DNA of 64,000 nucleotides, taken from an uncultured Candidatus Saccharibacteria bacterium (GTDB lineage: Bacteria > Patescibacteriota > Saccharimonadia > Saccharimonadales > UBA7683). How positions within the stretch are numbered: position 1 is the stretch's first letter; every line of letters begins with the position of its first letter. The position numbers and the translations under genes are program-made. The stretch lies in assembly GCA_964632215.1 (NCBI GenBank), contig CAZWBG010000001.1:46589-110588 (forward strand). The letters are read 5' to 3'. Below are positions 3,211 to 57,936 of the stretch, in pieces. A model generated the notes under the pieces. The model saw only the letters and a program-made list of their open reading frames with translations, did not search any database and was not told the origin of the DNA.

Positions 3211-4485
3211 CTAGAAGAGTCGGTCCCAGAGGCTTTGGGAAACACTCGGTAGTGGGTTCTCCTGGTTCACCTCAGTCTGTTGGTTAGTGTTCGTTGTTGC
3301 AGTGTTGGGGTTGGGATCGATTTGGTCTGCTCGTATGATAAGCCTGTTAATATCAGTACCCGGTGGATCACAGGTAAAGAGTGTCACTGTTGGAGTGGCG
3401 GTTTGTGTTAAGACAGAGGTATCCTGGGGTGAAACAATGCTCTTGCTCGTGACTTTGTAAGTGAAGCGCTGACTATTATAGTTAAGGTAAAATATGTCTC
3501 CTGGCTCAAGTTTTTTAAGATTTACAAAAACGTACTTATATTTACCAGAATTGAAGATGTTATTACTCGAGTGTCCGCCAATTACTACATTGCCGTTTGT
3601 ACCAGGGTTAGCAGTGTTGCCAAGCCGTACAACCCCGCGTTCTAAAGCTTTTTGATAACTAGCTTCGCTTACATCTGGCTCGTCGTATACAACCGGAGCT
3701 TCAACACCGATTCTTGGGATGATAATTTTTGGCTCAGGCCCTACCTTGGCCTGAGTGCTCGGCTCTACAATAACCGGCGTGGTAGCAACACCACCGGGAG
3801 AGATGTACTGTTTTACAAACCCTACGATTATCTGGTTGTAGTTTAGTAATAGGAGCGTACAACCGATTGTCAGTGCTGCCATGAGCGGCTTAAAATGGCT
3901 ACTACTCTTCACGCGCTTGGCTTGCTCCTGAACTCGGTTACGCACTTTCTGCCGCAGCTCTCTTGTAGTTTCTTGTTGTTCACTCGGCTGCTCAGGCGCA
4001 GAATAAGCCACAGATGCTGGAGAATCTGGTACGGGGTTGGCGGGGGCGATTGGTTCAGATGGATGACGCTTCTGCTGTTGCCACCAACCTGCATAATAAC
4101 GATAAAAGTATTGGTGGTAGTACTGCTGCCAAGCCGTGTGGTATTGCTGCCAGTCAACGGGTTCTCCATTCGTAGCGGGCGGCTGCTGGTTGGGCTGGGC
4201 CACTGCGTTATTATGGTGTCCTCCTTTGAGTTCTGCATGATTCACCACTGGATGCTCTGTAGATGATTTCTGGTTGGGCTCACCTTCTATCAAATAAGTT
4301 CGTTCAAGTTGATGGCGCGCAAGTTGAGCGGCTTGTTGATTGTCTGGCGTATGGGTAGCTTTAACTGGCCACTGGATGGGTGGTCTGTGCGTTTGTTGTC
4401 TGGCGGGAGTGCCACGATCGGACTGTAGTTTTTTGCGGTCGTTCATAGGTAATGCTCGTGCTAATCTACTTGGTATAGTGTACAA
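3211..4485 (-). CDS. sortase family transpeptidase (possibly class E), with a long low-complexity N-terminal region
   Basis: His-Cys-Arg catalytic signature in order: VVIGGHSSNN ... VTLFTCDPPGT ... NRLIIRA. TM MAALTIGCTLLLL. TTG at 4485; alternative ATG at 4446. Confidence 0.8.
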   Translation of the reverse strand: MYTIPSRLARALPMNDRKKLQSDRGTPARQQTHRPPIQWPVKATHTPDNQQAAQLARHQLERTYLIEGEPNQKSSTEHPVVNHAELKGGHHNNAVAQPNQQPPATNGEPVDWQQYHTAWQQYYHQYFYRYYAGWWQQQKRHPSEPIAPANPVPDSPASVAYSAPEQPSEQQETTRELRQKVRNRVQEQAKRVKSSSHFKPLMAALTIGCTLLLLNYNQIIVGFVKQYISPGGVATTPVIVEPSTQAKVGPEPKIIIPRIGVEAPVVYDEPDVSEASYQKALERGVVRLGNTANPGTNGNVVIGGHSSNNIFNSGKYKYVFVNLKKLEPGDIFYLNYNSQRFTYKVTSKSIVSPQDTSVLTQTATPTVTLFTCDPPGTDINRLIIRADQIDPNPNTATTNTNQQTEVNQENPLPSVSQSLWDRLF

Positions 4486-4645: not shown

Positions 4646-4732
4646 GGGCGAGTGGCGGAATTGGTAGACGCGCGGGATTCAAAATCCCGTTCTAGCAATA
4701 GAGTGAGGGTTCAATTCCCTCCTCGCCCACCA
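4646..4732 (+). tRNA. tRNA-Leu (anticodon CAA), type II long variable arm, CCA encoded
   Basis: Hand-folded cloverleaf. Acceptor gggcgag/ctcgccc. Anticodon stem cggga/tcccg with loop ttCAAaa. Long variable arm ttctagcaatagagtg. T arm gaggg-ttcaatt-ccctc. Discriminator a plus cca. Confidence 0.9.
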
Positions 4733-4926
4733 TGTAAGTTTTTCTTAAGAATGTACGTAAATTATTGTAGAAAATAGTAGTCACTACCTCTGTTTTATGG
4801 TACTGTTTTTGTAAATAAAAGATACTCTCTGGAGTGTCTTTTATTTTTTATATAGCACCTACTAGGTGTTAGGGCGAGGCTTTATATGTGTAAAAAAGGT
4901 GCTCACTTTTAAGAAAAACTTACACA
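4733..4926. repeat. palindromic element copy P1 (arms TGTAAGTTTTTCTTAA / TTAAGAAAAACTTACA separated by about 145 bp)
   Basis: The left arm starts 1 nt after the tRNA-Leu CCA. The interior holds a hairpin plus T-run (agatactc-tctg-gagtgtct-tttattttt, about 4821-4850), probably the tRNA terminator. Confidence 0.6.
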
Positions 4927-4979
4927 TTAGTGAACTAATCGACCGAGCGGGGTTCGTCCTTGACTACAGACAATAAGGG

Positions 4980-5345
4980 CTACTCATCGGGAGCGAAGAA
5001 GAGACGATCGAGACTCTCGCGCTCAACCGAGTCCTCTTCGGAAACGAGCAGTGAAAACCCACTCTGCACCAGATCGGTACGAGAGACCCACCGATCTACA
5101 TCTTCAAGATGTATGCCGAATTCATCAGGATCTGATAAAATCCTCCGAACCGTACTAGGAAACTCACCGTAGAACTCACTAAGCGAGGATAAACTAGGTA
5201 TATCTGGCCACTGCGCAAGAAGTTCAGTAATTGCCGACTCCAGATGACGTTGGCGGTCGATCTCCAGACGACCAGGCGACAGTCCAGCAAGCTGGTTTTT
5301 CAAGAGCGCACTGAGACTAAAGTTCTTTGTATCTAAATTTTCCAT
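4980..5345 (-). CDS. hypothetical acidic protein (orphan cassette ORF)
   Basis: 121-aa ORF, GC-richer than its neighbours. It has its own promoter-like TTGACG-17-TATACT upstream. No motif recognised. Confidence 0.5.
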   Translation of the reverse strand: MENLDTKNFSLSALLKNQLAGLSPGRLEIDRQRHLESAITELLAQWPDIPSLSSLSEFYGEFPSTVRRILSDPDEFGIHLEDVDRWVSRTDLVQSGFSLLVSEEDSVERESLDRLFFAPDE

Positions 5346-5363
5346 ACTTTTGCTACTGGTCGC

Positions 5364-5392
5364 CAGTATAAAGATTTCAACCTAGTCCGTCA
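5364..5392 (-). promoter_or_regulatory. sigma70-like promoter for ORF 4980..5345
   Basis: Minus strand: TTGACG (plus cgtcaa 5387-5392), 17-nt spacer, TATACT (plus agtata 5364-5369). The ATG lies 19 nt downstream of the -10, so the leader is very short. Confidence 0.4.
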
Positions 5393-5418
5393 AGTACTGC
5401 ACTAATGGCCTTCGGGTG

Positions 5419-5462
5419 TGTAAGTTTTTCTTAAAAATATGTTATTTTAAGAAAAACTTACA
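5419..5462. repeat. palindromic element copy P2 (minimal 44-bp perfect-arm hairpin)
   Basis: tgtaagtttttcttaaaa-atatgtta-ttttaagaaaaacttaca. It lies between ORF 5481..5744 and the promoter of ORF 4980..5345. Confidence 0.7.
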
Positions 5463-5480
5463 TGCAAGAGGATCAATCGA

Positions 5481-5744
5481 TTACGGGGAAGCCTCATGAC
5501 CCGACACGGCGACCTCGACCGCGGGACTAACGGCATCCAAAGATGATACCTCCCTGAGGTGATCAAGCTGCTCTTTCCAGTCTGGAGCATAAACATCATC
5601 CGGAAATACCTCGAGTGCAGTACTCAGCATAACGATGGCACGGATAACTGGGTCGTTAACAGCCGAGTAGACCTCGCTTGGCCGATTAGCTTCTTCATGG
5701 TTTCGTGGTTCCTTATTCATCTCCTTCCAGAATAGACCGACCAT
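5481..5744 (-). CDS. hypothetical protein (orphan cassette ORF)
   Basis: 87-aa ORF in the GC-richer block. No motif recognised. Confidence 0.4.
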   Translation of the reverse strand: MVGLFWKEMNKEPRNHEEANRPSEVYSAVNDPVIRAIVMLSTALEVFPDDVYAPDWKEQLDHLREVSSLDAVSPAVEVAVSGHEASP

Positions 5745-5951
5745 CTGTTCGAGTCAAGGTAAGATTCCTCTCGATTTATACAACTGTCACCTCCTCGCCC
5801 TTCGCCACAATGCTCGGTTGATACTGCGCTACATCACTTGAACTTCCCGAGACCGAGTCGCGTAGGGGTGACGACTTCATGAGTTTGTAGCTAATTACCG
5901 AACCATCACTTCGTACTCGGTCAGCTTTGTCGTAGCAATTTCATGCTTAAA

Positions 5952-6248
5952 CTAAAGAAGACCGTGATCCATGAGATTCTTTGTCTCGGATCTGCTAAGT
6001 GCGTCTACAACAAACTTGGAGCAACGCAAGCATTTCTCGCGAAGTAGTGGCTCGAACATGGTCACGCCATCGATGTCAGCAGGATCCTTCGAATCTACCA
6101 GTTCGACCAAACTGCGAGCGAGGTAAGACCTGCCGTCGCAAGGATATTCAGCATGAAAGATAAGCGCCTCGTCTGGAGAAGTCATGACAAGGTTACTCAG
6201 CAGGGATGGCGTTAGTGGGAGTCTTTCATTTCTAGTCACATTAATCAT
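5952..6248 (-). CDS. hypothetical protein (orphan cassette ORF)
   Basis: 98-aa ORF in the GC-richer block. No motif recognised. Confidence 0.4.
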   Translation of the reverse strand: MINVTRNERLPLTPSLLSNLVMTSPDEALIFHAEYPCDGRSYLARSLVELVDSKDPADIDGVTMFEPLLREKCLRCSKFVVDALSRSETKNLMDHGLL

Positions 6249-6318
6249 AGACTCTACACTACGGTTGAAAGGAACTCAATAGTGGGATCACGAATCGCAG
6301 TGTGCAAAGATTGGTCGG

Positions 6319-6510
6319 GTGCAAGTGATGGTCAAAGCAATAGATAGACTGAGCTTGCCGCCAGCACTACTCAGCGACTTCAACGGCACTTGGCATGTGC
6401 GGAATTTGGTGGCCGCGTCGATCGGGTTTGCCATAGATGAACAAGATGAGTCGCAGGATCCATCGACTAAGACAAAGTATCAACAGCAACTTAAGCTATT
6501 CTGTATGTAA
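6319..6510 (+). CDS. possible small hypothetical protein
   Basis: 63-aa ORF with a GTG start. Its stop codon TAA is the taa of the repeat core tgTAAg at 6508-6510. Weak support. Confidence 0.2.
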   Translation: MQVMVKAIDRLSLPPALLSDFNGTWHVRNLVAASIGFAIDEQDESQDPSTKTKYQQQLKLFCM

Positions 6511-6572
6511 GTTTTTCTTAAAAATAACATATTTTTATGATAAATTACGTACATTTTTAAGAAAAGCTTACA
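6506..6572. repeat. palindromic element copy P3 (67 bp, arms separated by 31 nt)
   Basis: tgtaagtttttcttaaaa...ttttaagaaaagcttaca. The interior aaattacgtacat is the inverted counterpart of atgtacgtaaatt next to the P1 left arm. Confidence 0.7.
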
Positions 6573-6727
6573 CTCTTGAGCGACTTGATACCTATCAGCC
6601 TGGTTTGGGTCGGCCAGTTGAACCAATCCCCTTGGCATCACGTCGACACCAAACCCTAACGTTAACTTTCCGCACAGGCAGCCCATGATTTGAGGACCGC
6701 CAAGGCAAACAGAGAGGATCAGAGTGC

Positions 6728-7261
6728 TTATATAAGGTATTTTGCGAACTTCTGTTTAAGTTTTATAACTTTTGGATTAATAACTATTTGACAGTAGGCT
6801 TGCTCAGGATAATTATTAAAATAATCTTGATGATATTGCTCAGCTGGCCAAAAAACTTCGAACGGTTTTATCTCAGTCACGATCTCATCTTGCCATAATT
6901 TCTGGGCTGTTTCTTTCAGGGATTCTTCAATAATTGCCTGTTGCTTTGGACTAGTATAAAAAATGACTGAGCGATATTGAGTGCCGATATCAGCTCCCTG
7001 TTGGTTGGGCGTTGTCGGGTTATGGAGTGCCCAGAAGATATCAAGCAAAACTCGTAAACTGACCTCTTTGGGGTTAAATTCAAGCTTTACTACCTCGGCG
7101 TGGCCAGTTCGACCGCCCAGTACTGCCTCGTAGGTTGGATGTTCTAATGTACCACCCGCGTAGCCACTTGTAATCGAGTCAACTCCTTTAACTTGTTGGT
7201 AAAGAGCCTCTAAACACCAGAAGCATCCACCACCGAGTACTATTGAATCGAGTTTCTCCAT
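6728..7261 (-). CDS. msrA: peptide methionine (S)-S-oxide reductase
   Basis: GGGCFWCLEA active-site motif; GHAEVVKLEFNP; YHQDY. Confidence 0.9.
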   Translation of the reverse strand: MEKLDSIVLGGGCFWCLEALYQQVKGVDSITSGYAGGTLEHPTYEAVLGGRTGHAEVVKLEFNPKEVSLRVLLDIFWALHNPTTPNQQGADIGTQYRSVIFYTSPKQQAIIEESLKETAQKLWQDEIVTEIKPFEVFWPAEQYHQDYFNNYPEQAYCQIVINPKVIKLKQKFAKYLI

Positions 7262-22736: not shown

Positions 22737-23093
22737 CTAGCTTTTGCTACTGAGACCTAGAAGTGTGGTTACGAGTACCAACCCAAAGCCGACCGAGAGT
22801 GCTACGGCAGTATATATACCAGGGCTTTGATAGGTAAAAACACTGAAGATAATCAGAAATACACTTATGACAAGTAATGTTGTTGTAAGTTGCAGTTTAA
22901 AAACATACTGTGCAAACAGGGCTATGAGTAGCACGCCAACCACTAGGGCGCTCCATAAAAAGAGAGGTTGGGCTAGTAGATCACTAAAACGAGAGGCCTT
23001 TACAGCCTCTTCGGCGTGGTCGTGTCCCGCGTGTGCAAGATATGTAAAAATATTCATAATGAGAAGTATATCAAGCTTATACTTGCAAGTCAC
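22737..23093 (-). CDS. small membrane protein with a His-rich N-terminus (AHAGHDHAEEA)
   Basis: 3 TM segments. Downstream of ArsR and glutaredoxin, so possibly metal-related. Start uncertain (GTG 23093 or ATG 23057). Confidence 0.5.
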   Translation of the reverse strand: MTCKYKLDILLIMNIFTYLAHAGHDHAEEAVKASRFSDLLAQPLFLWSALVVGVLLIALFAQYVFKLQLTTTLLVISVFLIIFSVFTYQSPGIYTAVALSVGFGLVLVTTLLGLSSKS

Positions 23094-23310
23094 CCTATTG
23101 CCGCATCAAGTACGCAGTGGCGGGCTGGCTATACGTTTCGGCTACCTTACTTTTGGTAGACTCGTCAGAGCAATCAATATGCTGACGTATAAAGAGGCTG
23201 CTGGCTGCGAAGTTGATCCGGACCTTCCGGACTTCTGCAAACCAGCACCTCTTGGGGCACCCCACCATTCGATCAGACCTTCCGATCAAATGGTTACCTG
23301 GGAGTATCGA

Positions 23311-23589
23311 CTACAGGTTTCGCCAAGCAGTGATGGTGTAATACACCAGCCCACTGGTTATACCCGTCATCATGCCTCCGATAGCCCCGCCGTAGAACCA
23401 TCCTACGTTACCGTAAGAGCTTCCCATGAGGCTCAGTACGATCCCTGCAATAATGCATCCTACGAACGTTACAGCTGCAACTGAGTATCCGAGATGCGCA
23501 GCACGATTCTCTGCACGTTTGAGTGCTTCTTCTCTTGCCCTCTCGGAAAGAGGATTGGCAAAACCTTTGTATACTGTGCGTTCTCTCAT
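23311..23589 (-). CDS. small membrane protein with a glycine-zipper-like segment
   Basis: GGAIGGMMTGITSGL and AAVTFVGCIIAGIVLSLMG. Lies in a GC-richer patch. Confidence 0.45.
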   Translation of the reverse strand: MRERTVYKGFANPLSERAREEALKRAENRAAHLGYSVAAVTFVGCIIAGIVLSLMGSSYGNVGWFYGGAIGGMMTGITSGLVYYTITAWRNL

Positions 23590-23673
23590 CGTTCACTTCC
23601 TTTTAAGAGGGTGGTTTCGAGATGGTCGAGCTCTCTAGCCGATCTAGTCAGGGAGGAATTTCGCGCTGCCAAA

Positions 23674-24006
23674 TCACCGAATCGGTGAGTCGGCGCCCAT
23701 GGTGATGCCTGCTGGGTTGACGCCGAGCTTGAGGCGACCGTAGGCCAGCGAAAGGATGTACTCACGAGCGAAGATCACCTGCAGACCTCTGAGCGTTGTT
23801 CCTTCGGGGATAGTCAGTGACCATCCTTCAGGTACGCGTGCTTCGGCGATGTCAAGGGCGTTCATCAGAAGCTCCTTGTGGCCCGACTCGAGATCCCTGA
23901 GGATCTCGTCGATTACACCGCCAACCTCTCGGCCGACGCTCAGTGCTGTCTCGACGGCACGTTCTGCGATGTCTCCTGCGATTGCAGGAATGGTTTCAGT
24001 TGCCAT
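23674..24006 (-). CDS. hypothetical protein (GC-rich patch)
   Basis: ATG 24006 is preceded by AAGGAGAG with 7-nt spacing. A strong promoter lies upstream. No motif recognised. Confidence 0.55.
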   Translation of the reverse strand: MATETIPAIAGDIAERAVETALSVGREVGGVIDEILRDLESGHKELLMNALDIAEARVPEGWSLTIPEGTTLRGLQVIFAREYILSLAYGRLKLGVNPAGITMGADSPIR

Positions 24007-38900: not shown

Positions 38901-39297
38901 TATGTGGAAGCTGTAAAAAGAGCTCCTCAAGCATCTGAAAGCTAGTGAGTTCATCTATGGCGCTAAACGGAGCTCCACTGAAAAAGTGCTCGTTGTAACG
39001 GTTAATAATCTCCAGGCAGAAACCATGAAATGTATATACGCCAACTCGGTAAGCGTCCTCACCTATCATACTCACTAGGCGTTCACGCATGGCAGCTGCG
39101 CCACTCTCGGTAAAAGTAATACACAGAATATTACTCGGTAGGCTATCGGTTTTTTGTAAAATATGAGCCACTCGAGCACTCAAAAGCTGGGTCTTGCCAG
39201 TTCCTGGCCCCGCAATAACCAGTACAGGCCCCTCTATAGTATCTACCGCTTCACGCTGTGCTGGATTCAGCCGATTATATTCTTCCTGAAAGTTCAT
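35992..39297 (-). CDS. UvrD/PcrA-type ATP-dependent helicase fused to a C-terminal PD-(D/E)XK (RecB/AddA-like) nuclease
   Basis: Walker A VIAGPGTGKTQLL; ITFTESGAAAMRERL; IDEFQDTN; C-terminal VVDYKTGK nuclease motif. Confidence 0.85.
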   Translation of the reverse strand: MNFQEEYNRLNPAQREAVDTIEGPVLVIAGPGTGKTQLLSARVAHILQKTDSLPSNILCITFTESGAAAMRERLVSMIGEDAYRVGVYTFHGFCLEIINRYNEHFFSGAPFSAIDELTSFQMLEELFLQLPHSNKLSTHFNEDFVYLPDTRSAIAELKQAGLTPNEVRAIIATNQQFIKTIEPKFSKLFDTPRLSKAVIPAFVELIETIQVQDVKGVALWPPLATLCRESASRAIAQSEETNSTKPITAWRNEWLEKNHQGTWSMKDDRRGQLLSEVADIYEQYLKKLQEKQLLDFDDMILQVVLALEQDEELRFKVQEQFQYILIDEFQDTNGAQLRIMQSLGSNPVNEGRPNILAVGDDDQAIYAFQGAQVSNMRTFAELWQDTKIVDLNENYRSTQAILNGAHEVGEKIEERISRSFGVSKQLQAKQPTSKVAIALQISFLSPQSQQQWVTQRVQELIASGIKSADIAILAPRHKYLQIIARSLMQANIPLAYERRDNVLQQPHIAQLVQLAQIVQYLVDEDYTEANALLPEILSYPFWNLKPQQIWRISLEAYRQSTYEEPKYWLEIMLESEDTKVIQVANWLLETAQLARFESLEHIVDELIGPGIHETGESFNSPFRSFYFSNSKLHSQPTIYLELLSNLRVLRQKLREFRPDQPLKLRDLVEFVRLHKKTGINIIDTNPHLAHQDAVELMTAYKSKGLEFHTVFIIEAQDTIWGEKSRTRPRTIKPPHNLPIERAGESSDDKKRLLYVAMTRAKQQLYISSYQYDDKDKLSLPVSYLNSSPLDQEVMESTPTQAKLIQTLEFDWRAPHLESVQTSLKQSLHGTLEDYQLSSTHLNNFIDIAQAGPQTFLLHNLLQFPTAMGPSAGYGSAIHAAIHKAHVEFTQRRKIDISAVTRQFMRSLKQYHLNEVEEKLYTERGIAALSSFFEQCGQTFGEQDKSELSFRNQGVLLGKAHLSGAIDKLVLNETNKTALVVDYKTGKAPLDWVGKDDFERIKLHKYKQQLIFYKLLVENSRDFSQYTVTKGQLVFVEPSVQSSECVTLEYEFTSEDVAYTTQLISAVWQKILALDLPDTSGFEPNLKGIQAFERTLIDNYTS

Positions 39298-39383
39298 CCT
39301 TCTATTGTAGCAAGCTATGCACTAATTAATCTCTATCTTCTCAAGCCGTGAAGCTGTAGGAGGCAGGTATTAATAGATCCGAC

Positions 39384-39417
39384 CACTCGGGTGCGCTTTT
39401 TGGGCGCACACCGAGTG
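39384..39417. terminator. hairpin between dapD (3' end) and the helicase gene start
   Basis: cactcgggtgcgc-tttttgg-gcgcacaccgagtg. Confidence 0.45.
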
Positions 39418-39429
39418 ATCTTTATGGAC

Positions 39430-40668
39430 CTAGTTCTTGTGCAGATCGGCGTTGAGTTCACCCCAGATGGAGTTGCCTCGAGGAATTACCTCAATGGCAC
39501 CATCTTTCGCGTTGCGGCGGAAAATGGCGTCGCTGATCCCACTGAGTTGCACTGCTTTGACGAAGATGGTCTCAGGTATGCCCTTGCCGCTCTTGCCGCG
39601 AACGGCATCCTTGGCTATGGGGTTGTTATCCCAGTCGAAACGGTTGATGCGCACTGGAGTAGTGCTCTTGATGTAGGCACCAACTTCGACTCGGACTCGG
39701 TTTCCAATGGGGATACCAAGTCCGCTTTCGGCCTCAAGGAGGCAGTCTTCGCCGATGCTGATCTTGACGTCGTTGCCACCGGAGAGAGTACCCATCGTTG
39801 AGGCACCTCCACCTATGGCACTTCCCCTACCGGAGACCACACCGGCGCTGATACGCCCTTCCACCATACCCGCACCGAGGGTGCCGGCGTTGAAATTGCA
39901 GGCACCCTCGTGCATCACGGTAGTTCCTTCGGCCAGATACGCCCCAAGGCGTACCCGATTACCATCGGCAATCCGGACACCTTCGGGTACTACCATGCTC
40001 AGCATGGGAGGGAACTTGTCCAGACAGTACACCATCATGGGTGCCCCCAAGTAGAGGCTGCACTCGATCTGAGCCGTGGCGATGTCACCAGGCCTGAATA
40101 CACCGAAGTTTGTCCAGGCCAGCGTCTCCAGCTTGCCGAAGATGCCCCCCAGGTTAATGCTATTGGGTGTTACCTTGCGGTGACTCAACAAGTGCAACCT
40201 GAGATAGACATCAGCGGCATCGACTGCTTCGGACTCGAGATCTCCGATGAAGGTTACGATTGGAACCGCTTCAGCAGCCGATAAGGGCAGTGGCTCGACG
40301 TCGACTGACAGTTCTTTACAGGTGTTATTCAGTGCTGTGAAAACGTCGATGTTGGAGTGCTTGTTGCCGTCACCGTCGAACACGGAGAATGCCACCTTGA
40401 TGGCCTCTCGTGTTGAAATTGAAGACAACTCCCAAGTACCGATATCCTTCACGCGTCCGACCGCATCGCTCAGTAGAGCGGCAGTGCCGTGGTTCTCGCG
40501 AATGTTGACCAGCGGGTACTGCGCGGCGACAATGTCGTCACCGATCTTGAAACCGATTCCCATGGCGAATGCCGCCGGCTCCGCGTATTCCTCCTGTGCT
40601 GCGACTTCGTTGGCAACCCTCAGGAAATCGTTGACAGTCTTGATGTTGTTTGCCCGAAAGAAGTTCAC
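39430..40668 (-). CDS. dapD: 2,3,4,5-tetrahydropyridine-2,6-dicarboxylate N-succinyltransferase (long form)
   Basis: Collinear, from memory, with gammaproteobacterial-type DapD: YLRLHLLSHRKV, LAWTN, DKFPPM, VRLGAYLAEGTTVMHEGACNFNAGTLG, STMGTLSGG, FRRN..GA.E. Hexapeptide repeats. GTG start after AGGAG. About 54% GC (hand count of 120 nt). Confidence 0.8.
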   Translation of the reverse strand: MNFFRANNIKTVNDFLRVANEVAAQEEYAEPAAFAMGIGFKIGDDIVAAQYPLVNIRENHGTAALLSDAVGRVKDIGTWELSSISTREAIKVAFSVFDGDGNKHSNIDVFTALNNTCKELSVDVEPLPLSAAEAVPIVTFIGDLESEAVDAADVYLRLHLLSHRKVTPNSINLGGIFGKLETLAWTNFGVFRPGDIATAQIECSLYLGAPMMVYCLDKFPPMLSMVVPEGVRIADGNRVRLGAYLAEGTTVMHEGACNFNAGTLGAGMVEGRISAGVVSGRGSAIGGGASTMGTLSGGNDVKISIGEDCLLEAESGLGIPIGNRVRVEVGAYIKSTTPVRINRFDWDNNPIAKDAVRGKSGKGIPETIFVKAVQLSGISDAIFRRNAKDGAIEVIPRGNSIWGELNADLHKN

Positions 40669-49096: not shown

Positions 49097-49171
49097 TGGG
49101 GCGTGGCCAAGTGGTAAGGCATCGGCTTTTGGTGCCGACATTCGGGGGTTCGAATCCCTCCGCCCCAGCCA
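49097..49171 (+). tRNA. tRNA-Gln (anticodon TTG), CCA encoded
   Basis: Hand-folded. Acceptor tggggcg/cgcccca. Anticodon stem tcggc/gccga with loop ttTTGgt. T arm ggggg-ttcgaat-ccctc. Discriminator g plus cca. Confidence 0.9.
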
Positions 49172-49179
49172 TGCAAAGT

Positions 49180-49204
49180 GTCGAGTCTTCTGACTCGACT
49201 TTTT
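49180..49204 (+). terminator. rho-independent terminator of tRNA-Gln
   Basis: gtcgagtc-ttct-gactcgac followed by ttttt. Confidence 0.7.
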
Positions 49205-49327
49205 GCATCTTTGAGTCGGTGAGGTTTAAACACGCGAGTGAACATTCGGGGTGAGAAATGCCTGTGGCATTTCGCAAGGAAACCTACTCTTCAAAACTAG
49301 TTTTTGAAAGCTGTAGTTTCGGGCCTG

Positions 49328-49364
49328 CTGAAAGTAGGTCGAATCCCTCCGCCCCAGCCAAGAC
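49328..49364 (+). repeat. att-like junction copy R1 (contains an exact 22-nt duplicate of the tRNA-Gln 3' end)
   Basis: tcgaatccctccgccccagcca at 49339-49360 is identical to 49150-49171. Flanked by ctgaaagtagg and agac. Followed by hairpin 49381-49402 plus T-run. Confidence 0.85.
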
Positions 49365-49518
49365 GAATGATCACCATAAGAAGCCATCAAATCGAATGGC
49401 TTTTTGTATTTCCACCCCAGTTGATCATTTTTTAGCACAAGGTTCTGAAGTACTAAATTGAATAACTCACGCTTTTGCTCTACTTCAGAAACGGTACTAA
49501 CTAGTAAATCTTGAGGGG

Positions 49519-50499
49519 TTATTTTCTTGGCACAAAGAGTTTGTCGGTATTATGAATTACAAAGACTCGTCGCATTAAGTCTTCTTTTATATCTTTTGAA
49601 ATGCGTCCGTATTGCAGAAAACGCTCCTGTACAGCCTCTTTAAAAGAATTCTCGGTCCTAACAGATCTCCGTGACCGAGCGGTATAGGTGGTGTCATACT
49701 TATGAATGATGACATATCTACTATTAGATACATTCATCCAACTGATAATTTCTCTCCAGATGTAACTATCGGTCTCTCCCATGGATGCGCCAAAGAGAAC
49801 CACGACACTACTTAATCTAAGAGTTTTTCGAAAAGCTTCTAGTCGACCGTCATTTGCTGAATCAATTAACTTTGATTTGATAAGGTCATTCTTCTCACGA
49901 GTTGACATCCCATCATACAGTTGAGACTCATCACTCACTCCAAGTGTCATGTAAAGATCGACTGTACCGTGAAGATGTTGGGGTAATTGTAAATTGTAGC
50001 CGCGTGGTGTTAGGATTTTATCACCTGCGAGAATTTTTTCTAACGTCTTTGTATAGTTTAGTGACACGAAATTTAAGTAGACTGGTAAACTTTGCAGGAT
50101 GCCTCTAACAATGTTGTATTGACCATCGTTAAGTCCATCGAACAATCCTTTTTCGTCGGCAGCAAACTGAAATTTGTCTGGTAGGTTCTCAATAGACTTT
50201 TCTTGACTATCTAAATAGTCTGCCAGGTCATCACGAACTCTATCCAGCTCTTCGTGGAACTTAATAGACTCATCTTCGCGCTTGCTTTCGGGTAACTTTC
50301 CAATATAGGAAGTGTGTTCGCCAAGACTTCTCTCAAAATCTGACCAAGTATCAAGATTACCACTGATCTCTTTGTATATTCGGTTGCTTCCAATATGATC
50401 TTTTTCTATTACATAAGCGTAAAAATCACTATACTTTGTCTTCAGTTCAAGCGATAGATCCAGCCCATTGCCGATAATGAATGTAACTTGTGCTGCCAT
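49519..50499 (-). CDS. AbiH-like abortive infection protein
   Basis: N-terminal FIIGNGLDLSLELKTKYSDFY, WSDFERSLG, LNYTKTLEKIL, HLHGTV, VVLFGASMGETDSYIW. Collinear, from memory, with the AbiH family (PF14253). Confidence 0.65.
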   Translation of the reverse strand: MAAQVTFIIGNGLDLSLELKTKYSDFYAYVIEKDHIGSNRIYKEISGNLDTWSDFERSLGEHTSYIGKLPESKREDESIKFHEELDRVRDDLADYLDSQEKSIENLPDKFQFAADEKGLFDGLNDGQYNIVRGILQSLPVYLNFVSLNYTKTLEKILAGDKILTPRGYNLQLPQHLHGTVDLYMTLGVSDESQLYDGMSTREKNDLIKSKLIDSANDGRLEAFRKTLRLSSVVVLFGASMGETDSYIWREIISWMNVSNSRYVIIHKYDTTYTARSRRSVRTENSFKEAVQERFLQYGRISKDIKEDLMRRVFVIHNTDKLFVPRK

Positions 50500-50578
50500 A
50501 CCTTTGTCCTTAATATTTATACCATTGTAGTATGACAGATTTACATCTTATGCCAAGTTTCGTTGACCTAAATTCTTT

Positions 50579-50609
50579 CTGAAACGTGTGCATTAATCCC
50601 AGCCAAGAC
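50579..50609 (+). repeat. att-like junction copy R2 (short form)
   Basis: ctgaaacgtgtgcattaatcccagccaagac. Followed by hairpin agaacctc-tgtttt-gaggttct (50621-50642), a T-run, and TGtTATAAT (50649-50657). Confidence 0.7.
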
Positions 50610-50648
50610 ACTTGTGTTTTAGAACCTCTGTTTTGAGGTTCTTTTGTT

Positions 50649-50657
50649 TGTTATAAT
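50649..50657 (+). promoter_or_regulatory. extended -10 promoter giving a leaderless mRNA for the HIT-like gene
   Basis: TGtTATAAT; the ATG at 50665 lies 7 nt after the -10. Confidence 0.5.
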
Positions 50658-50664
50658 TTTAGTA

Positions 50665-51144
50665 ATGAATGAAATAATCCTAGAAACTGAGAATTTTGCT
50701 GTTGAAGTACCGGTGCAACCTTTTGTAAGCCGTGAAGATGGTGGACACCTACGCATCATGTCAAAGCTTGATGTGAAAGATCGTACTGAGTTAACTCTCG
50801 ATCAGACTATTGAATATGCCCTACTCACAGAAGTTGTTGGCAAGGCTCTGGAGCTAACAATGACAGATCAAGGTATAGATATTGGCAACATAAACTGGCA
50901 AGAAATGGGAAACTGGAGTGTATTTAAGCCGGAAGGAATAAGACTCCATATGCATATATTTGGTAGAGCGAAAAATGCTGAGATTCAAAAATATGGAGAA
51001 GCAGTTAAATTACCGTTTAGAGATACTGGTTTCTATGACGATTTTTATAAGTTAAGTGATGATGATATATCCAAACTTAAAATTAAAATGCGAATAATCT
51101 TACAAAACGCTAAGTTTGCTACTCTGACAGAAAAGTTGACTTAA
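50665..51144 (+). CDS. HIT (histidine triad)-like protein
   Basis: ILETENFAVEV..., GGHLRIMSK, and a triad-like RLHMHIFGR. Start trimmed from TTG 50644. Confidence 0.5.
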   Translation: MNEIILETENFAVEVPVQPFVSREDGGHLRIMSKLDVKDRTELTLDQTIEYALLTEVVGKALELTMTDQGIDIGNINWQEMGNWSVFKPEGIRLHMHIFGRAKNAEIQKYGEAVKLPFRDTGFYDDFYKLSDDDISKLKIKMRIILQNAKFATLTEKLT

Positions 51145-51171
51145 ATAAGTAACTTGGAGATTGCTGTCTTC

Positions 51172-51202
51172 CTGAAACGCTTTCATTAATCCCAGCCAAT
51201 AC
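51172..51202 (+). repeat. att-like junction copy R3 (short form)
   Basis: ctgaaacgctttcattaatcccagccaatac. About 80% identical to the R2 module over about 95 bp, including the hairpin (agaacttcc-tag-aggagttct) and TGcTATAAT (51241-51249). Confidence 0.7.
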
Positions 51203-51240
51203 GCTTACGCTTTAGAACTTCCTAGAGGAGTTCTTTTATT

Positions 51241-51249
51241 TGCTATAAT
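51241..51249 (+). promoter_or_regulatory. extended -10 promoter giving a leaderless mRNA for the HAD-like gene
   Basis: TGcTATAAT; the ATG at 51256 lies 6 nt after the -10. Confidence 0.5.
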
Positions 51250-51255
51250 GACGAT

Positions 51256-51642
51256 ATGAAAACAATACTTGTAGATGCAATCAATGGGCTCATTCTTGAA
51301 GACGGAACTATCTTTCGGAAAATGTACGAAATGCTGGAAACTTACCCCAACTCTAAGATTGTCCTCACGGGTGCAAATGATGAACAGTTTGAGAAGTTTA
51401 ACCTAGGCAAGTCGCCTTACGAAGTCTTTACGCTTAAACACAATCCAGAAAAGACAGACCCTAGCTATTTCAAAATTCTTTTAGAGAAGTTCAATCTAAA
51501 ACCGCAAGACGTTATCTACTTCGAGCATAATATCGATGCAACGAAATCAGCTGAATCCATAGGGATCAATTCATACTTCTATGACCACACAAAAGAAGAT
51601 ATCGTTGCACTTAAAGATTTTATTGACACTAATATTTCATAG
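51256..51642 (+). CDS. small HAD-like hydrolase-fold protein (degenerate motif I)
   Basis: ILVDAINGLI in place of DxDxT; VLTGAND; YFEHNIDATKSAESIGI. Confidence 0.45.
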   Translation: MKTILVDAINGLILEDGTIFRKMYEMLETYPNSKIVLTGANDEQFEKFNLGKSPYEVFTLKHNPEKTDPSYFKILLEKFNLKPQDVIYFEHNIDATKSAESIGINSYFYDHTKEDIVALKDFIDTNIS

Positions 51643-51653
51643 GCATCTTCTTT

Positions 51654-51684
51654 CTGAAACATACCCATTAGCTCCCGCTATAAC
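51654..51684 (+). repeat. att-like junction copy R4 (degenerate short form)
   Basis: ctgaaacatacccattagctcccgctataac. Followed by hairpin aatactctg-attttc-ccagagtatt, a T-run and TATACT. Confidence 0.5.
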
Positions 51685-51826
51685 ATTTATGTTTAAATAC
51701 TCTGATTTTCCCAGAGTATTTTTCGATGATATACTGCTGGTATGATTACAATAATTTTTTGGTGAAGCATTGGTTAGTAGCATTAAAGACGCTCTTCAGT
51801 AGGCTAAAATATTATAGGATAACGAT

Positions 51827-53344
51827 ATGAACAGAGCAATTGACAAAGACGTCTACGATAAATATCTGAAGAAACCATGGTATCTTCACCAACTTACAAT
51901 GTCTATCTTATTCGCGGCGTGGATTTTGATTATCCCGCCTATTATCGGAATTGCTCTGCTCATTGTGAACACCAAAGACAATAAAAAGAAAAAACAACTT
52001 CTAGCAGATCTTAGCATTGATAAAGTTATTCAGCTCGATGTTCTAGAAAAGCAAATCGCTGATAAAATAAAGCACGATAAAGCTCTCAATGCCCTTACTG
52101 AGATTAAAGGTCGTTACACATCAACTAAGGATGAATTAGATAAGCTGTCGGCTGAGATAGCAAAGAAAACGGAACATAATCAGTCGCTCACAACTCTAAG
52201 CGGTGTCCAAAAGGAACTGACTAAACTTAAAGAGCAATACAAGACAAGTAAGGAAAAACTTGCTGAGCTTGCAGGGAAGATTATCGAAGCCGAAAACGAA
52301 GTTGATCTACAAGAAGCAGGTTTTTATGGACTTGACCTTGATGTTTCAACATCTGCGGAATATAAAACAAAGATGATTGAGCTGCAAGACAAGCAAAAAG
52401 ACATGGTTAAGAGTAAGACTGCGTGTGATTTCTCTGGTAGCGTCACTTGGAATAATAGCCTGACTGACGGCAAGAAGATGGTTCGTCAAAGTATCAAAAT
52501 GAAACTATGGTCTTTCAACACTCATTGCGACAGCGTAATTACGAAAGTAACATATCGCAACCGTGCATTGTCTGAAAGAAAGATACAAAAAGCATTTGAT
52601 GTGCTTAACGCGAACGATAATCTTTCTACGATTAGCTATGATTATTTGCAGCTGAAGCTGGAAGAGCTTGGTGTCACCTTTAATTACAAAGAACAACTTA
52701 AGTATGAAAAAGAACTGTTACGTGAGCAACGCGAACAGGAGCGTGAAGAACGCAACCTTCAGCAAGAAATTGCACGCGAACGAGCCAAGATTGAAAAAGA
52801 TCAGACACATATCAACACAGAACTTGCTCGTTTACAAAAACTGCTACTTGAAGAAAGAAACGATAAGCAAACGCTACAAAAAGAAGTTGATGGGCTTGAA
52901 CAAAAACTCCAGAAACTTAATAAGCGGAAAGAAGAAGTGGACTTTCGCGAGGCGCATGCAAAAGCTGGATATGTCTATGTAATATCAAATGTCGGTGCAT
53001 TTGGTAAAGATGTTATTAAGGTTGGGGTCACTAGACGTCTTGAGCCTATTGAGCGTATTAATGAGCTTGGTGATGCGTCTGTTCCGTTCCGATTTGACGT
53101 GCATGCACTTGTCTTTTCTGATCATGCTTTTAAGCTTGAAAAAGCACTCCATGACAGATTTTCAAAACAGCGCATGAACCAAGTCAACAGTAGAAAAGAG
53201 TTCTTTAGAGTGTCGCTTGAAGAAGTGCGCAAGGCCATTACCCAAGAGTTTAATGGTAATTCCGTAGAGTTCCATATGCAGCCAGAGGCAAGAGAGTTTA
53301 GGCAAAGTATTGCGAAACTGAGACTAAAACAGCAGAGTCGATAA
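51827..53344 (+). CDS. DUF4041-like coiled-coil protein with a C-terminal T5orf172/MUG113 (GIY-YIG-like) domain
   Basis: N-terminal TM; long coiled-coil (EKELLREQREQEREERNLQQEIARERAKIEKD). C-terminal GYVYVISNVGAFGKDVIKVGVTRRLEPIERINELGDASVPFRFDVHALVFSDHAFKLEKALHDRF. Confidence 0.6.
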   Translation: MNRAIDKDVYDKYLKKPWYLHQLTMSILFAAWILIIPPIIGIALLIVNTKDNKKKKQLLADLSIDKVIQLDVLEKQIADKIKHDKALNALTEIKGRYTSTKDELDKLSAEIAKKTEHNQSLTTLSGVQKELTKLKEQYKTSKEKLAELAGKIIEAENEVDLQEAGFYGLDLDVSTSAEYKTKMIELQDKQKDMVKSKTACDFSGSVTWNNSLTDGKKMVRQSIKMKLWSFNTHCDSVITKVTYRNRALSERKIQKAFDVLNANDNLSTISYDYLQLKLEELGVTFNYKEQLKYEKELLREQREQEREERNLQQEIARERAKIEKDQTHINTELARLQKLLLEERNDKQTLQKEVDGLEQKLQKLNKRKEEVDFREAHAKAGYVYVISNVGAFGKDVIKVGVTRRLEPIERINELGDASVPFRFDVHALVFSDHAFKLEKALHDRFSKQRMNQVNSRKEFFRVSLEEVRKAITQEFNGNSVEFHMQPEAREFRQSIAKLRLKQQSR

Positions 53345-53394
53345 GCTGTGTACTCCTTTGTTTGCAAAGGTGTGACGACCGAGTCTTAGCCATT

Positions 53395-53439
53395 CTGTTC
53401 GAAATAGGTTCGAATTTCAGCGTGCAATGGAGCCAAAAG
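53395..53439 (+). repeat. att-like junction copy R4b (long form, retains a T-arm-like ggttcgaat)
   Basis: ctgttcgaaataggttcgaatttcagcgtgcaatggagccaaaag aligns with R1 ctgaaagtaggtcgaatccctccgccccagccaagac. Followed by hairpin ttatccgc-tgtg-gcggataa (53461-53480). Confidence 0.5.
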
Positions 53440-53737
53440 GTATTTATACAAACGAGGGGGTTATCCGCTGTGGCGGATAAGACACACAGTTTTGGTCAAT
53501 GCATTCAGTGTGAAAATGCTCTGTGACTATTTACAATTAACACTAGTTGTTGTATAATGTGTATTCGGTAAGATTAATTCTTGCTGACTACTATCTGAAA
53601 TATGAGGTAGTGAAGAGGGAATATTTTTCTCTTCTGTTCTTTAACGTGCTAGCTCAGTCACCTTATTTGAGGTAGGTCAATCGTCATTAAAGTAATTAAT
53701 GGTGTTTGGCCCACCTCAAAACTAACAAGGAGACACT

Positions 53738-54163
53738 ATGGGTAAGCGAATGGCAAGTGTTGCACTGGCAGTCATCACCGTCCTGGCGATGGCTAGCTGC
53801 AGCAGCGACGCTGATGTGGCATCGGACAACCTATCCAAGAAGGCCGAGCAGTTCGAGATCAACCGCCGCATCGTGTTCTTCAACGGTATCACCGACGTCT
53901 ACATGATGACCATCGAGGGCTTCTGCTCCATCGAGGCTGATGCCGCCGATACCCAGCTGGAGGTGACTTGCAAGGTGGGCGAGGATGCCTATAAGAAGCA
54001 CTTCCTTGGGCTGTCTGACAATGTCTCGTACTTTGTCGAGCAGATCGAAGCCGCTAACGTCGACGTTTACCACTACCAGGTGATTTTCAAGCCTGAAGTC
54101 ATTATTCCTGATATCCGAACGGAGACGTCTGGCGATGACGGCGGTGAGGAAGGTAGCAACTAG
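53738..54163 (+). CDS. lipoprotein (GC-rich cassette)
   Basis: Signal peptide with lipobox-like VLAMASC; SD AAGGAG; GC-richer than the flanks. Confidence 0.65.
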   Translation: MGKRMASVALAVITVLAMASCSSDADVASDNLSKKAEQFEINRRIVFFNGITDVYMMTIEGFCSIEADAADTQLEVTCKVGEDAYKKHFLGLSDNVSYFVEQIEAANVDVYHYQVIFKPEVIIPDIRTETSGDDGGEEGSN

Positions 54164-57858: not shown

Positions 57859-57873
57859 GGCAACTAATAAATA

Positions 57874-57910
57874 AAAGCAGAGTGCTACTAAACGGCACCC
57901 TGCTTTTATT
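57874..57910. terminator. bidirectional rho-independent terminator
   Basis: aaagcagagtgc-tactaaacg-gcaccctgcttt flanked by A-run and T-run, between convergent genes. Confidence 0.6.
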
Positions 57911-57936
57911 TGGAGTGAGATGAGGCAGTAGTCCCC

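Follow-up and report, generated by a model that had tools for sequence, protein, structure and literature searches.

Saccharibacteria and other ultra-small bacteria are thought to carry few mobile elements, and how they gain genes is poorly understood. The MITEs are short (about 50–500 bp), non-coding elements with terminal inverted repeats, target-site duplication and multiple dispersed copies, which go with a parent insertion sequence or transposase that has matching inverted repeats. Bacterial examples such as Correia/NEMIS, RUP, SPRITE and MITEAba12 are small and AT-rich, have near-perfect terminal inverted repeats, lie in intergenic DNA, are capable of forming hairpins in RNA and vary in their interiors by insertions and deletions; SPRITE carries terminators, and in MITE-flanked composite units a pair of elements can bracket passenger genes. 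The dif site is a 28 bp sequence comprising an 11-nt XerC arm, a 6-nt spacer and an 11-nt XerD arm. In the dif modules of Acinetobacter plasmids (XerC/XerD), short palindrome-like sites bracket small gene modules, the recombinase is not encoded in cis and neighbouring sites may be opposed. Integron arrays and CALIN contain small, promoter-poor ORFs of unknown function that all point the same way and have an imperfect palindrome behind each of them, with no integrase nearby. Integrase-built islands place foreign genes at the 3' end of a tRNA, and the same tRNA serves as a hotspot in relatives; they are marked by an integrase gene and, at the far boundary, a direct repeat of the tRNA 3' end. REP/REPIN sequences are high-copy extragenic palindromes with a GTAG-type head and an associated RAYT (Y1 transposase) gene. 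The IS30 family generates 2-bp direct repeats and targets near-palindromic hot spots as well as its own inverted repeats, which leads to clustering (PMC9333248).

The locus described here belongs to a Saccharibacterium and was analysed within a window of 64 kb, the whole stretch of DNA under study, to which 9.5 kb on the left and 6 kb on the right (15.5 kb in total) were added, so that approximately 80 kb of a genome of roughly 0.69 Mb were covered. Immediately 3' of tRNA-Leu(CAA) there is a block of 1.84 kb that is lineage-specific foreign DNA, the next base after the tRNA CCA being the first base of the block (Table 1). The block consists of two GC-richer segments with small acidic orphan genes, bounded and split by three AT-rich foldback copies, which we refer to as P1, P2 and P3. 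The GC content is 0.16–0.30 in the elements and 0.49 in the gene segments versus 0.448 for the window, in agreement with an earlier note on this DNA that described GC-richer, minus-strand ORFs between the elements. The same single arrangement is seen in four independent sequencing runs, with neither an empty nor an alternative allele. The right edge of the foreign DNA need not coincide with P3, because the spacer beyond it, which has no similarity to the spacers of relatives, is GC-rich as well and may be native or foreign.

Table 1. Features of the block and its flanks, in window coordinates
Feature	Position	Strand	Basis and remarks
Sortase-domain protein, left flank, conserved	3211-4446	-	Pfam Sortase, E = 3.6e-26
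tRNA-Leu(CAA), intact, CCA encoded	4646-4732	+	ARAGORN; Rfam tRNA, 61.7 bits
P1, 192-bp foldback element	4733-4924		Arm scan, alignment; long end 4733-4780, interior ~125 nt, short-end arm 4907-4924
Canonical bidirectional intrinsic terminator within P1	4813-4852		Terminator scan; A-tract, 15-bp stem, T-tract
ORF121, acidic orphan, pI 4.4	4980-5345	-	Codon score 0.106, low end of host genes
Promoter-like TTGACG-17-TATACT, 20 nt before ORF121 ATG	5365-5393	-	10/12 consensus positions
P2, perfect 18-8-18 palindrome, 44 bp, spacer ATATGTTA	5419-5462		Arm scan
ORF87, acidic orphan, pI 4.5	5481-5744	-	Codon score 0.165
CCTCCTCGCCC, 11-nt direct copy of tRNA-Leu 3' strand (4718-4728)	5790-5800	+	Score equalled or exceeded in 2.1% of 1000 shuffles
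ORF98, orphan, doubtful coding signal	5952-6248	-	Codon score 0.027; matches itself only
P3, 67-bp foldback element, opposite orientation to P1 and P2	6506-6572		Arm scan, alignment
Spacer of 155 nt, P3 to msrA stop	6573-6727		GC content 0.535
msrA, right flank, conserved	6728-7261	-	Pfam PMSR, E = 1.4e-62; homologues and synteny

The foldback elements are built from six near-identical 18-nt arms, corresponding to TGTAAGTTTTTCTTAAAA and its complement. The exact 16-mer TGTAAGTTTTTCTTAA is present at 4733 (+), 4909-4924 (-), 5419 (+), 5447-5462 (-) and 6506 (+), and a sixth copy with one mismatch is found at 6557-6572 (-). Arm identity across the copies amounts to 107 of 108 positions, and the interiors vary by insertions and deletions. 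The elements follow a common plan in which a long end, composed of the arm, TGTAC and a second arm-like stretch, is joined through a spacer to a short end that consists of the arm. In P1 the TGTAC of the long end is followed by a possible degenerate second arm; in P3 the order from left to right is short-end arm (6506-6523), spacer ATAACATA and long end (6532-6572); and in P2 the long-end extension is missing. P2 and P3 each have an 8-nt spacer, and that of P1 is about 125 nt long; the corresponding arm-to-arm distances are 8 nt in P2, 27–30 nt in P3 and roughly 150 nt in P1. No credible ORF is found inside any of the three elements.

The earlier note had described a 31-nt repeat that starts behind the tRNA-Leu CCA and recurs in inverted form at 6542-6572, together with three inverted arm pairs that have related interiors. 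Alignment of 4733-4763 with the reverse complement of 6542-6572 confirms the repeat at 28 of 31 positions; it can be extended to 41 nt at 85%, so that the outermost long ends (4733-4773 and 6532-6572) are inverted repeats oriented towards each other. The three arm pairs are likewise borne out, but the end given for P1 (4926, for a length of 194 bp) requires correction, as the core stops at 4924 and the remainder is a flanking CA. The interiors are indeed related: P2 is the reverse complement of P3 minus approximately 22–23 nt, the stretch missing from P2 being bounded in P3 by AAAAAT direct repeats as read from the sequence, and the first 48 nt or so of P1 match the reverse complement of P3. 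Identity among the copies ends sharply at the tips TGTAAG / CTTACA, giving termini of the form 5'-TG...CA-3', and past the arms similarity is weak. P1 and P2 are flanked by 2-bp direct repeats (CA/CA and TG/TG, respectively), and P3 by none (TA and CT); two or more such matches in three would arise by chance with a probability of about 0.01, for a pattern that was spotted post hoc. All elements are predicted to fold strongly as RNA (P1: -54.3 kcal/mol, z = -5.7; P2: -19.6 to -25.6 kcal/mol, z = -9 to -10; P3: -20.8 to -23.2 kcal/mol, z = -5.3 to -6.6), and P2 also as single-stranded DNA (-14.9 kcal/mol).

The three minus-strand ORFs (121, 87 and 98 aa) remain singletons when clustered at 90% identity and have no significant match in Pfam, PADLOC, PHROG or NCBIfam. 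ORF121 and ORF98 were searched singly; ORF98 retrieved itself only, and ORF121, against 1.84 billion representative proteins, retrieved itself and two spurious tandem-repeat matches only. In other assemblies ORF87 is called as a 79-aa protein with its start at 5720, and its cluster contains the 87-aa and 79-aa forms only; for ORF98 a 77-aa form is also called. The orphan status assigned to the ORFs in the earlier note is upheld by the self-matches of ORF121 and ORF98 and by the lack of a match to these families for ORF87. AlphaFold single-sequence models of ORF121 (unusable, pLDDT 42) and ORF87 (pLDDT 55) are unfit for fold searches because these values are too low. The promoter that had been proposed for at least one ORF is present ahead of ORF121 as a consensus match, but the count of such matches is not above that in shuffles (5 in the region versus 5.0 expected, no enrichment). 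A TTGACT-17-TATTCT match at 5757-5729 would fit the shorter form of ORF87. P2 lies 18 nt past the ORF87 stop and 26 nt upstream of the -35 box of ORF121.

The order msrA, tRNA-Leu, sortase is kept in all seven related Saccharibacteria loci. The sortase, for which a 411-aa form is recorded whose exact product is present in the protein collection, keeps its syntenic position in every relative. Between tRNA-Leu and msrA these relatives have either 127 nt without an ORF or different, mutually unrelated orphan ORFs; palindromes of the P1–P3 type are absent from all seven loci, and there are no sequence remnants common to the block and the spacers of relatives. As the gap is nearly empty or filled with unrelated ORFs in relatives, the block is an insertion at a gene-gain hotspot between tRNA-Leu and msrA. 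The proposed insertion beside tRNA-Leu is supported by this comparison, and the ORFs are not conserved core genes, since those in the gap differ in relatives. The junction therefore gains genes repeatedly across a family-level clade, with orphan genes that differ by lineage. Derivation of the arm from the native tRNA trailer was considered and not adopted, as relatives share only TAAR...CTTAAG after the CCA, which is too short to judge.

In two relatives the 3' half of tRNA-Leu recurs downstream of the gene (40/43 nt in L176, 51 nt in L177), and at the tRNA-Gln islet in the same window the boundaries are formed by direct repeats of that tRNA's 3' end (22/22 nt). No significant tRNA-derived repeat flanks the block, for which the best match is 11 nt (p ~0.02). 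The boundary is thus unlike that of the tRNA-Gln islet, as had been remarked before: a private foldback repeat structures the acquired DNA of this one lineage, in contrast to the integrase-type tRNA-end repeats of its relatives and of tRNA-Gln.

All three known element copies fall within the 1.84 kb. Outside the block, one further arm match with up to 3 mismatches occurs in the 64-kb window and looks like chance; shuffles gave 1.3 arm matches on average and none of 100 reached 7. No arm copy was found outside the block in the window and its 15.5 kb extensions (up to 4 mismatches; nhmmer), and nhmmer with element profiles returned no degenerate copies in the window, the extensions or the relatives. 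In the GTDB species representatives, a collection without the source genome, a search with the 18-mer arm yielded 67 matches, all of them single and in unrelated taxa. JGI metagenomes gave 0 matches both for paired arms and for the arm plus TGTAC, and IMG/VR gave 0 for paired arms and, for the single arm, single matches only in unrelated taxa. None of the 163 chance-match loci from GTDB and IMG/VR had a convincing inverted partner arm, and multi-copy or paired instances are absent from all three collections. The block has no match in phage and plasmid collections (blastn), and an Rfam search (E up to 1) returned the tRNA only. Transposase and integrase families are absent from the block and from 49 window ORFs scanned, in line with what the earlier note had stated, and no recombinase family appears in the gene tables of the extensions.

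Our best reading, which we hold tentatively, is that the elements are MITE-like and have been moved in trans, possibly forming a composite unit. P1–P3 would be miniature non-autonomous terminal-inverted-repeat transposable elements, mobilised by a DDE-type transposase whose gene is not in the vicinity and may be lost or belong to a donor genome. Such an enzyme would bind the 18-nt tips and the subterminal sequence of the long end, and with 41-nt long ends that face each other the whole block may have moved or arrived as one composite unit. Transposition, an enzyme provided in trans and any part played in transcription are inferences. The shared plan, arm conservation, sharp tips and 2-bp flanking repeats at P1 and P2 count in favour, as do the AT-rich, non-coding, intergenic nature of the elements with their strong foldback, the insertion at a hotspot, and the lack of an integrase, of a significant tRNA-end duplication and of a general terminator family. 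The lengths of 192, 44 and 67 bp and inverted repeats of 18–21 nt at 90–100% correspond to MITEs, and the locus shares with the bacterial families small size, AT-richness, near-perfect terminal inverted repeats, intergenic position, the capacity for RNA hairpins and interiors that vary by insertions and deletions, as well as a terminator in P1, as in SPRITE, and bracketed genes, as in composite units.

The MITE-like reading is opposed by several observations. Unlike the bacterial families, there are three known copies, all confined to the block with none dispersed in some 80 kb, and neither a parent insertion sequence nor its transposase was found in the scanned ORFs or the extension gene tables; GTDB species representatives, JGI metagenomes and IMG/VR hold no multi-copy or paired instance. 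The 2-bp duplication is seen at two of three copies, P3 lacking it, and the four runs show a single arrangement. For synapsis by a transposase, the copy of 44 bp, whose interior is 8 nt, is very small. In favour of the reading, though as a lead only, the 2-bp direct repeats resemble those of the IS30 family, for which clustering of ends is expected upon insertion beside its own ends (PMC9333248). Unlike IS30 dimers, the ends here are not tip to tip, and no IS30-type transposase was found. The tips, TGTA..., are presumably also similar to those of the IS30 family. Other element types were rejected: REP/RAYT, with three copies in 80 kb and no Y1 transposase family among the scanned ORFs; Tn7-like ends, as the arms alternate in orientation without any 5-bp duplication; IS200/IS605-type hairpin ends, as P1–P3 are true inverted repeats; and an invertible switch, given one arrangement across four samples. 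Overall the repeat most resembles miniature non-autonomous transposons, and the locus is a neat case of an established type, not a novel system.

It is conceivable, if unlikely, that the palindromes are instead core sites of a site-specific recombinase acting in trans (tyrosine or host Xer-type) and that the block is a recombinase-less cassette array, assembled from circular modules inserted one after another in the manner of the Acinetobacter dif modules or of integrase-less attC clusters. P2 has lox/FRT-like geometry, with perfect inverted arms around an asymmetric 8-nt spacer, and near-identical arms would be expected of protein-binding sites. Every palindrome follows a gene unit, the ORFs share one direction, a separate promoter-like site precedes ORF121 and possibly ORF87, tRNA-Leu is a recombination hotspot in relatives, and the dif-module literature describes site arrays that lack a cis-encoded recombinase. 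However, with the arm distances given above, only P2 has a core-compatible spacer, and the spacers of P2 and P3 are inverted, which is not produced by simple integration. No recombinase family is found in the scanned window ORFs or extension gene tables, module content does not vary among the four samples, and no second array turned up in the scans of GTDB species representatives, JGI metagenomes and IMG/VR. Mobility of the kind implied by the term 'cassette-like' in the earlier note is at most putative, all four runs having the identical arrangement. A more specific version, in which P2 would be the minimal 18-8-18 core, the long ends accessory, and the block a private, integron- or dif-module-like stacking of promoter-bearing orphan modules at a tRNA without tRNA-end duplication, used by Saccharibacteria with their tiny genomes and few classical mobile elements, is in our estimate distinctly unlikely.

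Identification with either described array type fails in detail. Like integron arrays and CALIN, the block has small, promoter-poor orphan ORFs in one orientation with a palindrome behind them (P2 after ORF87, P1 after ORF121, ORF98 having no site of its own) and no integrase nearby. The arms here are, in contrast, perfect and unbulged, at least one ORF has a promoter-like site, and the attC core motifs RYYYAAC / GTTRRRY are absent from P1–P3 ±7 nt on both strands. The bracketing of small gene modules, the lack of a recombinase in cis and the opposed orientation of P2 and P3 are reminiscent of dif modules, but the sites here are longer, with 18-8-18 (P2) or larger geometry rather than 11-6-11, the XerC/XerD arm consensus is not conserved, and the block is chromosomal, tRNA-adjacent and without evidence of shuffling. 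The only XerD-arm-like 11-mer, TTATGATAAAT at 6535-6545, has one mismatch to what we take to be the E. coli arm and is not conserved in P1.

Alternatively, and also unlikely, the whole islet with its repeats derives from one horizontal transfer from an unsampled donor rich in the repeat, such that the elements are inert passengers here. This would account for gene segments and 155 nt beyond P3 that are GC-richer than the host (0.49–0.535 versus 0.448), for copies that cluster here and are missing from the remaining ~78 kb, and for the lack of a mobilising enzyme in an arrangement identical across four samples. On the other hand, the databases searched yielded no donor-like sequence, repeat or protein, and the left element abuts the tRNA CCA exactly, suggesting a targeted event. 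Old passive copies are disfavoured because the arms are 107/108 identical, which suggests recent copying or ongoing constraint. The distinction matters: if the repeats are active, as transposable elements or recombination sites, they offer a handle on gene flow in Saccharibacteria and a possible genetic tool, and if they are inert passengers the locus is an unremarkable islet confined to one strain.

Each of the three is placed at the 3' end of one transcription unit (msrA; ORF98-ORF87; ORF121) and probably has a second role as a transcript-end hairpin or insulator. That they are nothing but immobile functional hairpins, whether unusual terminators, mRNA-end stabilisers, RNase III sites or operator palindromes, spread by local duplication or gene conversion, appears very unlikely. 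The position just downstream of transcription units, the strong RNA hairpins of P2 and P3, the true bidirectional terminator inside P1 and the proximity of P2 to the -35 box of ORF121 would fit such a role. However, where an intrinsic terminator has a GC-containing stem followed by a T/U run, P2 and P3 have no U-tract, their stems are nearly pure A/U, and they are not called as terminators; only the separate hairpin inside P1 (4813-4846) qualifies. It matches the host terminator at 57869-57911 in style, and both differ in appearance from the palindromes. The palindrome follows no other gene in approximately 80 kb, which answers the concern raised previously that it might be an ordinary bidirectional terminator family, and structure alone would not require identity of an 18-nt sequence.

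A classical integrase-built tRNA island with decayed attachment repeats and incidental palindromes is highly improbable: the tRNA-Leu 3'-half copies of 43–51 nt in L176 and L177, the repeat-bounded tRNA-Gln islet and the 11-nt match at 5790-5800 (p ~0.02) would be consistent with it, and the block resembles such islands in its position and hotspot, but it has no integrase gene or bounding tRNA 3'-end repeat, its sole tRNA-like repeat is 11 nt and of marginal significance, its boundary palindrome is unrelated to the tRNA and starts after the CCA, and six near-identical arms would be left unexplained. The CCTCCTCGCCC copy falls between ORF87 and ORF98 in non-coding DNA, mid-block rather than at a block end, and may just conceivably be a decayed att remnant.

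The 1.84 kb directly 3' of tRNA-Leu(CAA) (hereafter, the block) is bracketed and subdivided by three foldback elements, P1, P2 and P3, each built from paired near-identical arms, and the description of it in the earlier note was correct. The 16-mer TGTAAGTTTTTCTTAA begins at the base directly after the tRNA and recurs within the arms. The rest of the 64-kb window yielded one additional match with up to three mismatches, which is at chance level (shuffled sequences gave a mean of 1.3 matches, and 0 of 100 reached seven). The outermost inverted repeat of the block matches at 28 of 31 positions over the stretch first noted, and reaches 41 nt at 85%. A foldback element is present at P1 as proposed, although the end assigned to it, 4926, takes in a flanking CA. 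P1–P3 are the strongest local inverted repeats in the window among well-matched ones (90% or more). The GC content of the elements is 0.16–0.30, that of the two gene segments is 0.49, and that of the window is 0.448. Two 1-kb stretches elsewhere stand at 0.53; one overlaps a tetrahydrodipicolinate N-succinyltransferase-like gene and the other gave no family match. Coordinates are summarized in the table.

Features in and around the tRNA-Leu block and the tRNA-Gln islet, in window coordinates
Feature	Position	Strand	Remarks
tRNA-Leu(CAA)	4646-4732	+	intact (ARAGORN, Rfam)
P1	4733-4924		192 bp
P2	5419-5462		44 bp; perfect 18-8-18 palindrome
P3	6506-6572		67 bp; opposite orientation to P1 and P2
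16-mer, exact	4733; 5419; 6506 (starts)	+
16-mer, exact	4909-4924; 5447-5462	-
16-mer, sixth copy	6557-6572	-	one mismatch
Bidirectional terminator	4813-4846		inside P1
Bidirectional terminator	57869-57911
CCTCCTCGCCC	5790-5800		11-mer, mid-block
TTATGATAAAT	6535-6545		inside P3
tRNA-Gln(UUG) islet	49097-54163
Repeat of tRNA-Gln 3' end	49339-49360		22 nt, perfect, direct
Degenerate repeats	50574; 51167; 51649		about 55 nt
AbiH	49519-50499	-	islet cargo
DUF4041 + T5orf172 protein	51827-53344		islet cargo
Phage_VG64-family protein	53738-54163		islet cargo
High-GC stretch	23001-24000		no family match
High-GC stretch	39001-40000		overlaps transferase-like gene

The three elements share a common plan of long end, spacer and short end (alignment A1), which runs the same way in P1 and P2 and the opposite way in P3. 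The long end consists of the arm (about 18–19 nt), TGTAC and a stretch of about 17 nt that resembles a degenerate second arm, agreeing with the arm at 12 of 18 positions in P1; the short end is the arm alone. The six arms agree at 107 of 108 positions, and similarity ends sharply at the tips TGTAAG and CTTACA, which are flanked by the dinucleotides CA/CA in P1, TG/TG in P2 and TA/CT in P3. As first noted, P2 looks like a deletion derivative of P3 in opposite orientation: removing about 22–23 nt from the reverse complement of P3 yields P2; on our reading, the missing segment appears to be bounded by AAAAAT direct repeats. The interior of P1 (about 125 nt) holds the only canonical bidirectional terminator of the region. 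This terminator and a second one distant in the window are alike in style (AAATAAAAG ... CTTTTATTT), which may be the standard terminator form of the host.

The best named relatives of msrA are from Candidatus Saccharibacteria (Saccharimonadia), and the lineage is poorly sampled, since the closest protein other than the query itself shares just 69% identity. The order msrA, tRNA-Leu(CAA), sortase-domain gene and PEGA-domain gene is kept in seven related loci; the contig of an eighth, L175, stops short of the tRNA and carries a 300-aa ORF. The interval from the tRNA CCA to the msrA stop measures 1995 nt in the window, where it holds ORF121, ORF87 and ORF98 (named by length in amino acids), and 127 nt in L078 (no ORF), 218 nt in L176 (no called ORF), 402 nt in L075 (98-aa ORF), 707 nt in L077 (230-aa ORF) and 1000 nt in L177–L180 (227-aa ORF). 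The ORFs of the relatives show no family match and no kinship to each other or to those of the window, which are not conserved core genes in these relatives, and the P1–P3 palindromes were found in none of the related loci. As the interval content varies among relatives and the palindromes are absent there, we infer that the block is an insertion at a conserved hotspot. Judged from these comparisons, the hotspot between tRNA-Leu and msrA collects orphan genes.

The three ORFs all lie on the minus strand, as first described, and encode acidic proteins (pI 4.4, 4.5 and 5.0 for ORF121, ORF87 and ORF98, respectively). With codon-usage scores of 0.10–0.35 for host genes as reference, ORF121 (0.106) and ORF87 (0.165) are plausibly coding, ORF98 (0.027) is doubtful, and a 63-aa plus-strand ORF (about 0) is probably not coding. 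Each of the three is a singleton at 90% identity. An exhaustive phmmer search with ORF121 against 1.84 billion representative proteins returned ORF121 and, beyond it, just two spurious translations of tandem repeats; the ORF98 search matched only itself. Nothing significant for the three was found in Pfam, PADLOC, PHROGs, NCBIfam or the PDB, and single-sequence AlphaFold models of the block proteins gave no usable structure. The promoter proposed for ORF121, TTGACG-17-TATACT, does match 20 nt upstream of the start, but shuffled sequences yield matches of this kind just as often; a weaker promoter-like match would fit a 79-aa form of ORF87.

We tentatively favour the view that P1–P3 are miniature non-autonomous inverted-repeat (MITE-like) elements, on account of the TG...CA tips and sharp edge of identity, the asymmetry of long and short ends with variable interiors, the AT-rich, intergenic character of the elements, and the 2-bp direct repeats that flank two of the three copies. 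Their mobilisation would be in trans, and, with long ends facing each other, the whole 1.84 kb could act as one composite unit. A mechanistic precedent for the clustering, as a lead only, may be IS30-type transposition, which makes 2-bp repeats and whose targets include palindromic hot spots as well as its own ends (PMC9333248). The mobility implied by the term 'cassette-like' is unproven. On a small scale, the locus cleanly illustrates known themes in an under-studied phylum: a hotspot next to a tRNA gene, and genes bracketed by inverted-repeat elements.

It is conceivable, if unlikely, that P1–P3 are recombinase core sites, in keeping with the geometry of P2 and with one palindrome following each gene unit; however, the spacers are unequal and the orientations inverted. 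The reported lack of a transposase or integrase holds: neither a scan of 49 window ORFs nor the gene tables for 15.5 kb of flanking DNA, obtained from other assemblies, showed any recombinase family. P1–P3 have no attC core motifs, and no conserved dif-like 11-6-11 site was found. TTATGATAAAT is one base off the E. coli dif XerD arm, a likeness that is probably due to chance, the homologous P1 stretch not being conserved.

We give a similarly low likelihood to P1–P3 being inert passengers from an unsampled donor. Searches for the arm in GTDB species representatives and IMG/VR gave single chance matches only, and paired or extended arm patterns had no matches in JGI metagenomes or IMG/VR. Across the block, contigs from SRR16797976, -77, -80 and -81 agree with the window at 100% identity, and no alternative arrangement was seen in the contigs of these four runs. 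All of them end within the tRNA, as would be expected where co-occurring strains have that tRNA in common. P1–P3 fold strongly both as RNA and as single-stranded DNA (z-scores -5 to -10), and that they are purely functional hairpins seems distinctly improbable. They are not ordinary terminators, as P2 and P3 have no U-tract and the motif is not found behind any further gene over about 80 kb.

It is very improbable that the block is a decayed integrase island, and a classical tRNA island was rejected because its best tRNA-derived match is an 11-mer in mid-block, whereas relatives have, downstream of the tRNA, 43–51-nt copies of a tRNA-Leu 3' half (40 of 43 nt in L176; 51 nt in L177). As the earlier note stated, its boundary element differs from that of the tRNA-Gln(UUG) islet, which is marked by tRNA-end repeats; the block has no significant one. 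Besides the repeat of its tRNA 3' end, the tRNA-Gln islet has three degenerate repeats, each ahead of a gene, and has the look of a defence islet with tandem att repeats, with no integrase among the ORFs scanned. The tRNA-end repeats there and in L176 and L177 are integrase footprints.

The tRNA-Leu(CAA) genes of related Saccharibacteria are of two sequence types, and tRNA-Leu 3' fragments, often of the other type, lie downstream of the functional gene in each locus (L078, 8532-8882; L176, 4535-5035; L177, 4532-5760). These fragments imply repeated integrase-mediated traffic and tRNA-end replacement at the site. Within the block, CCTCCTCGCCC is a direct copy from the tRNA-Leu 3' strand; 2.1% of shuffles reach an equal or higher score (p about 0.02). 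It lies between ORF87 and ORF98, in non-coding sequence shortly upstream of a promoter-like match, and may be a decayed att remnant dividing the block into two historical layers. Locus-spanning contigs from public assemblies of SRR16797976, -77 and -81 break within the tRNA-Leu gene, at window positions 4648 and 4673, which suggests co-occurring strains with the same tRNA and different flanks.
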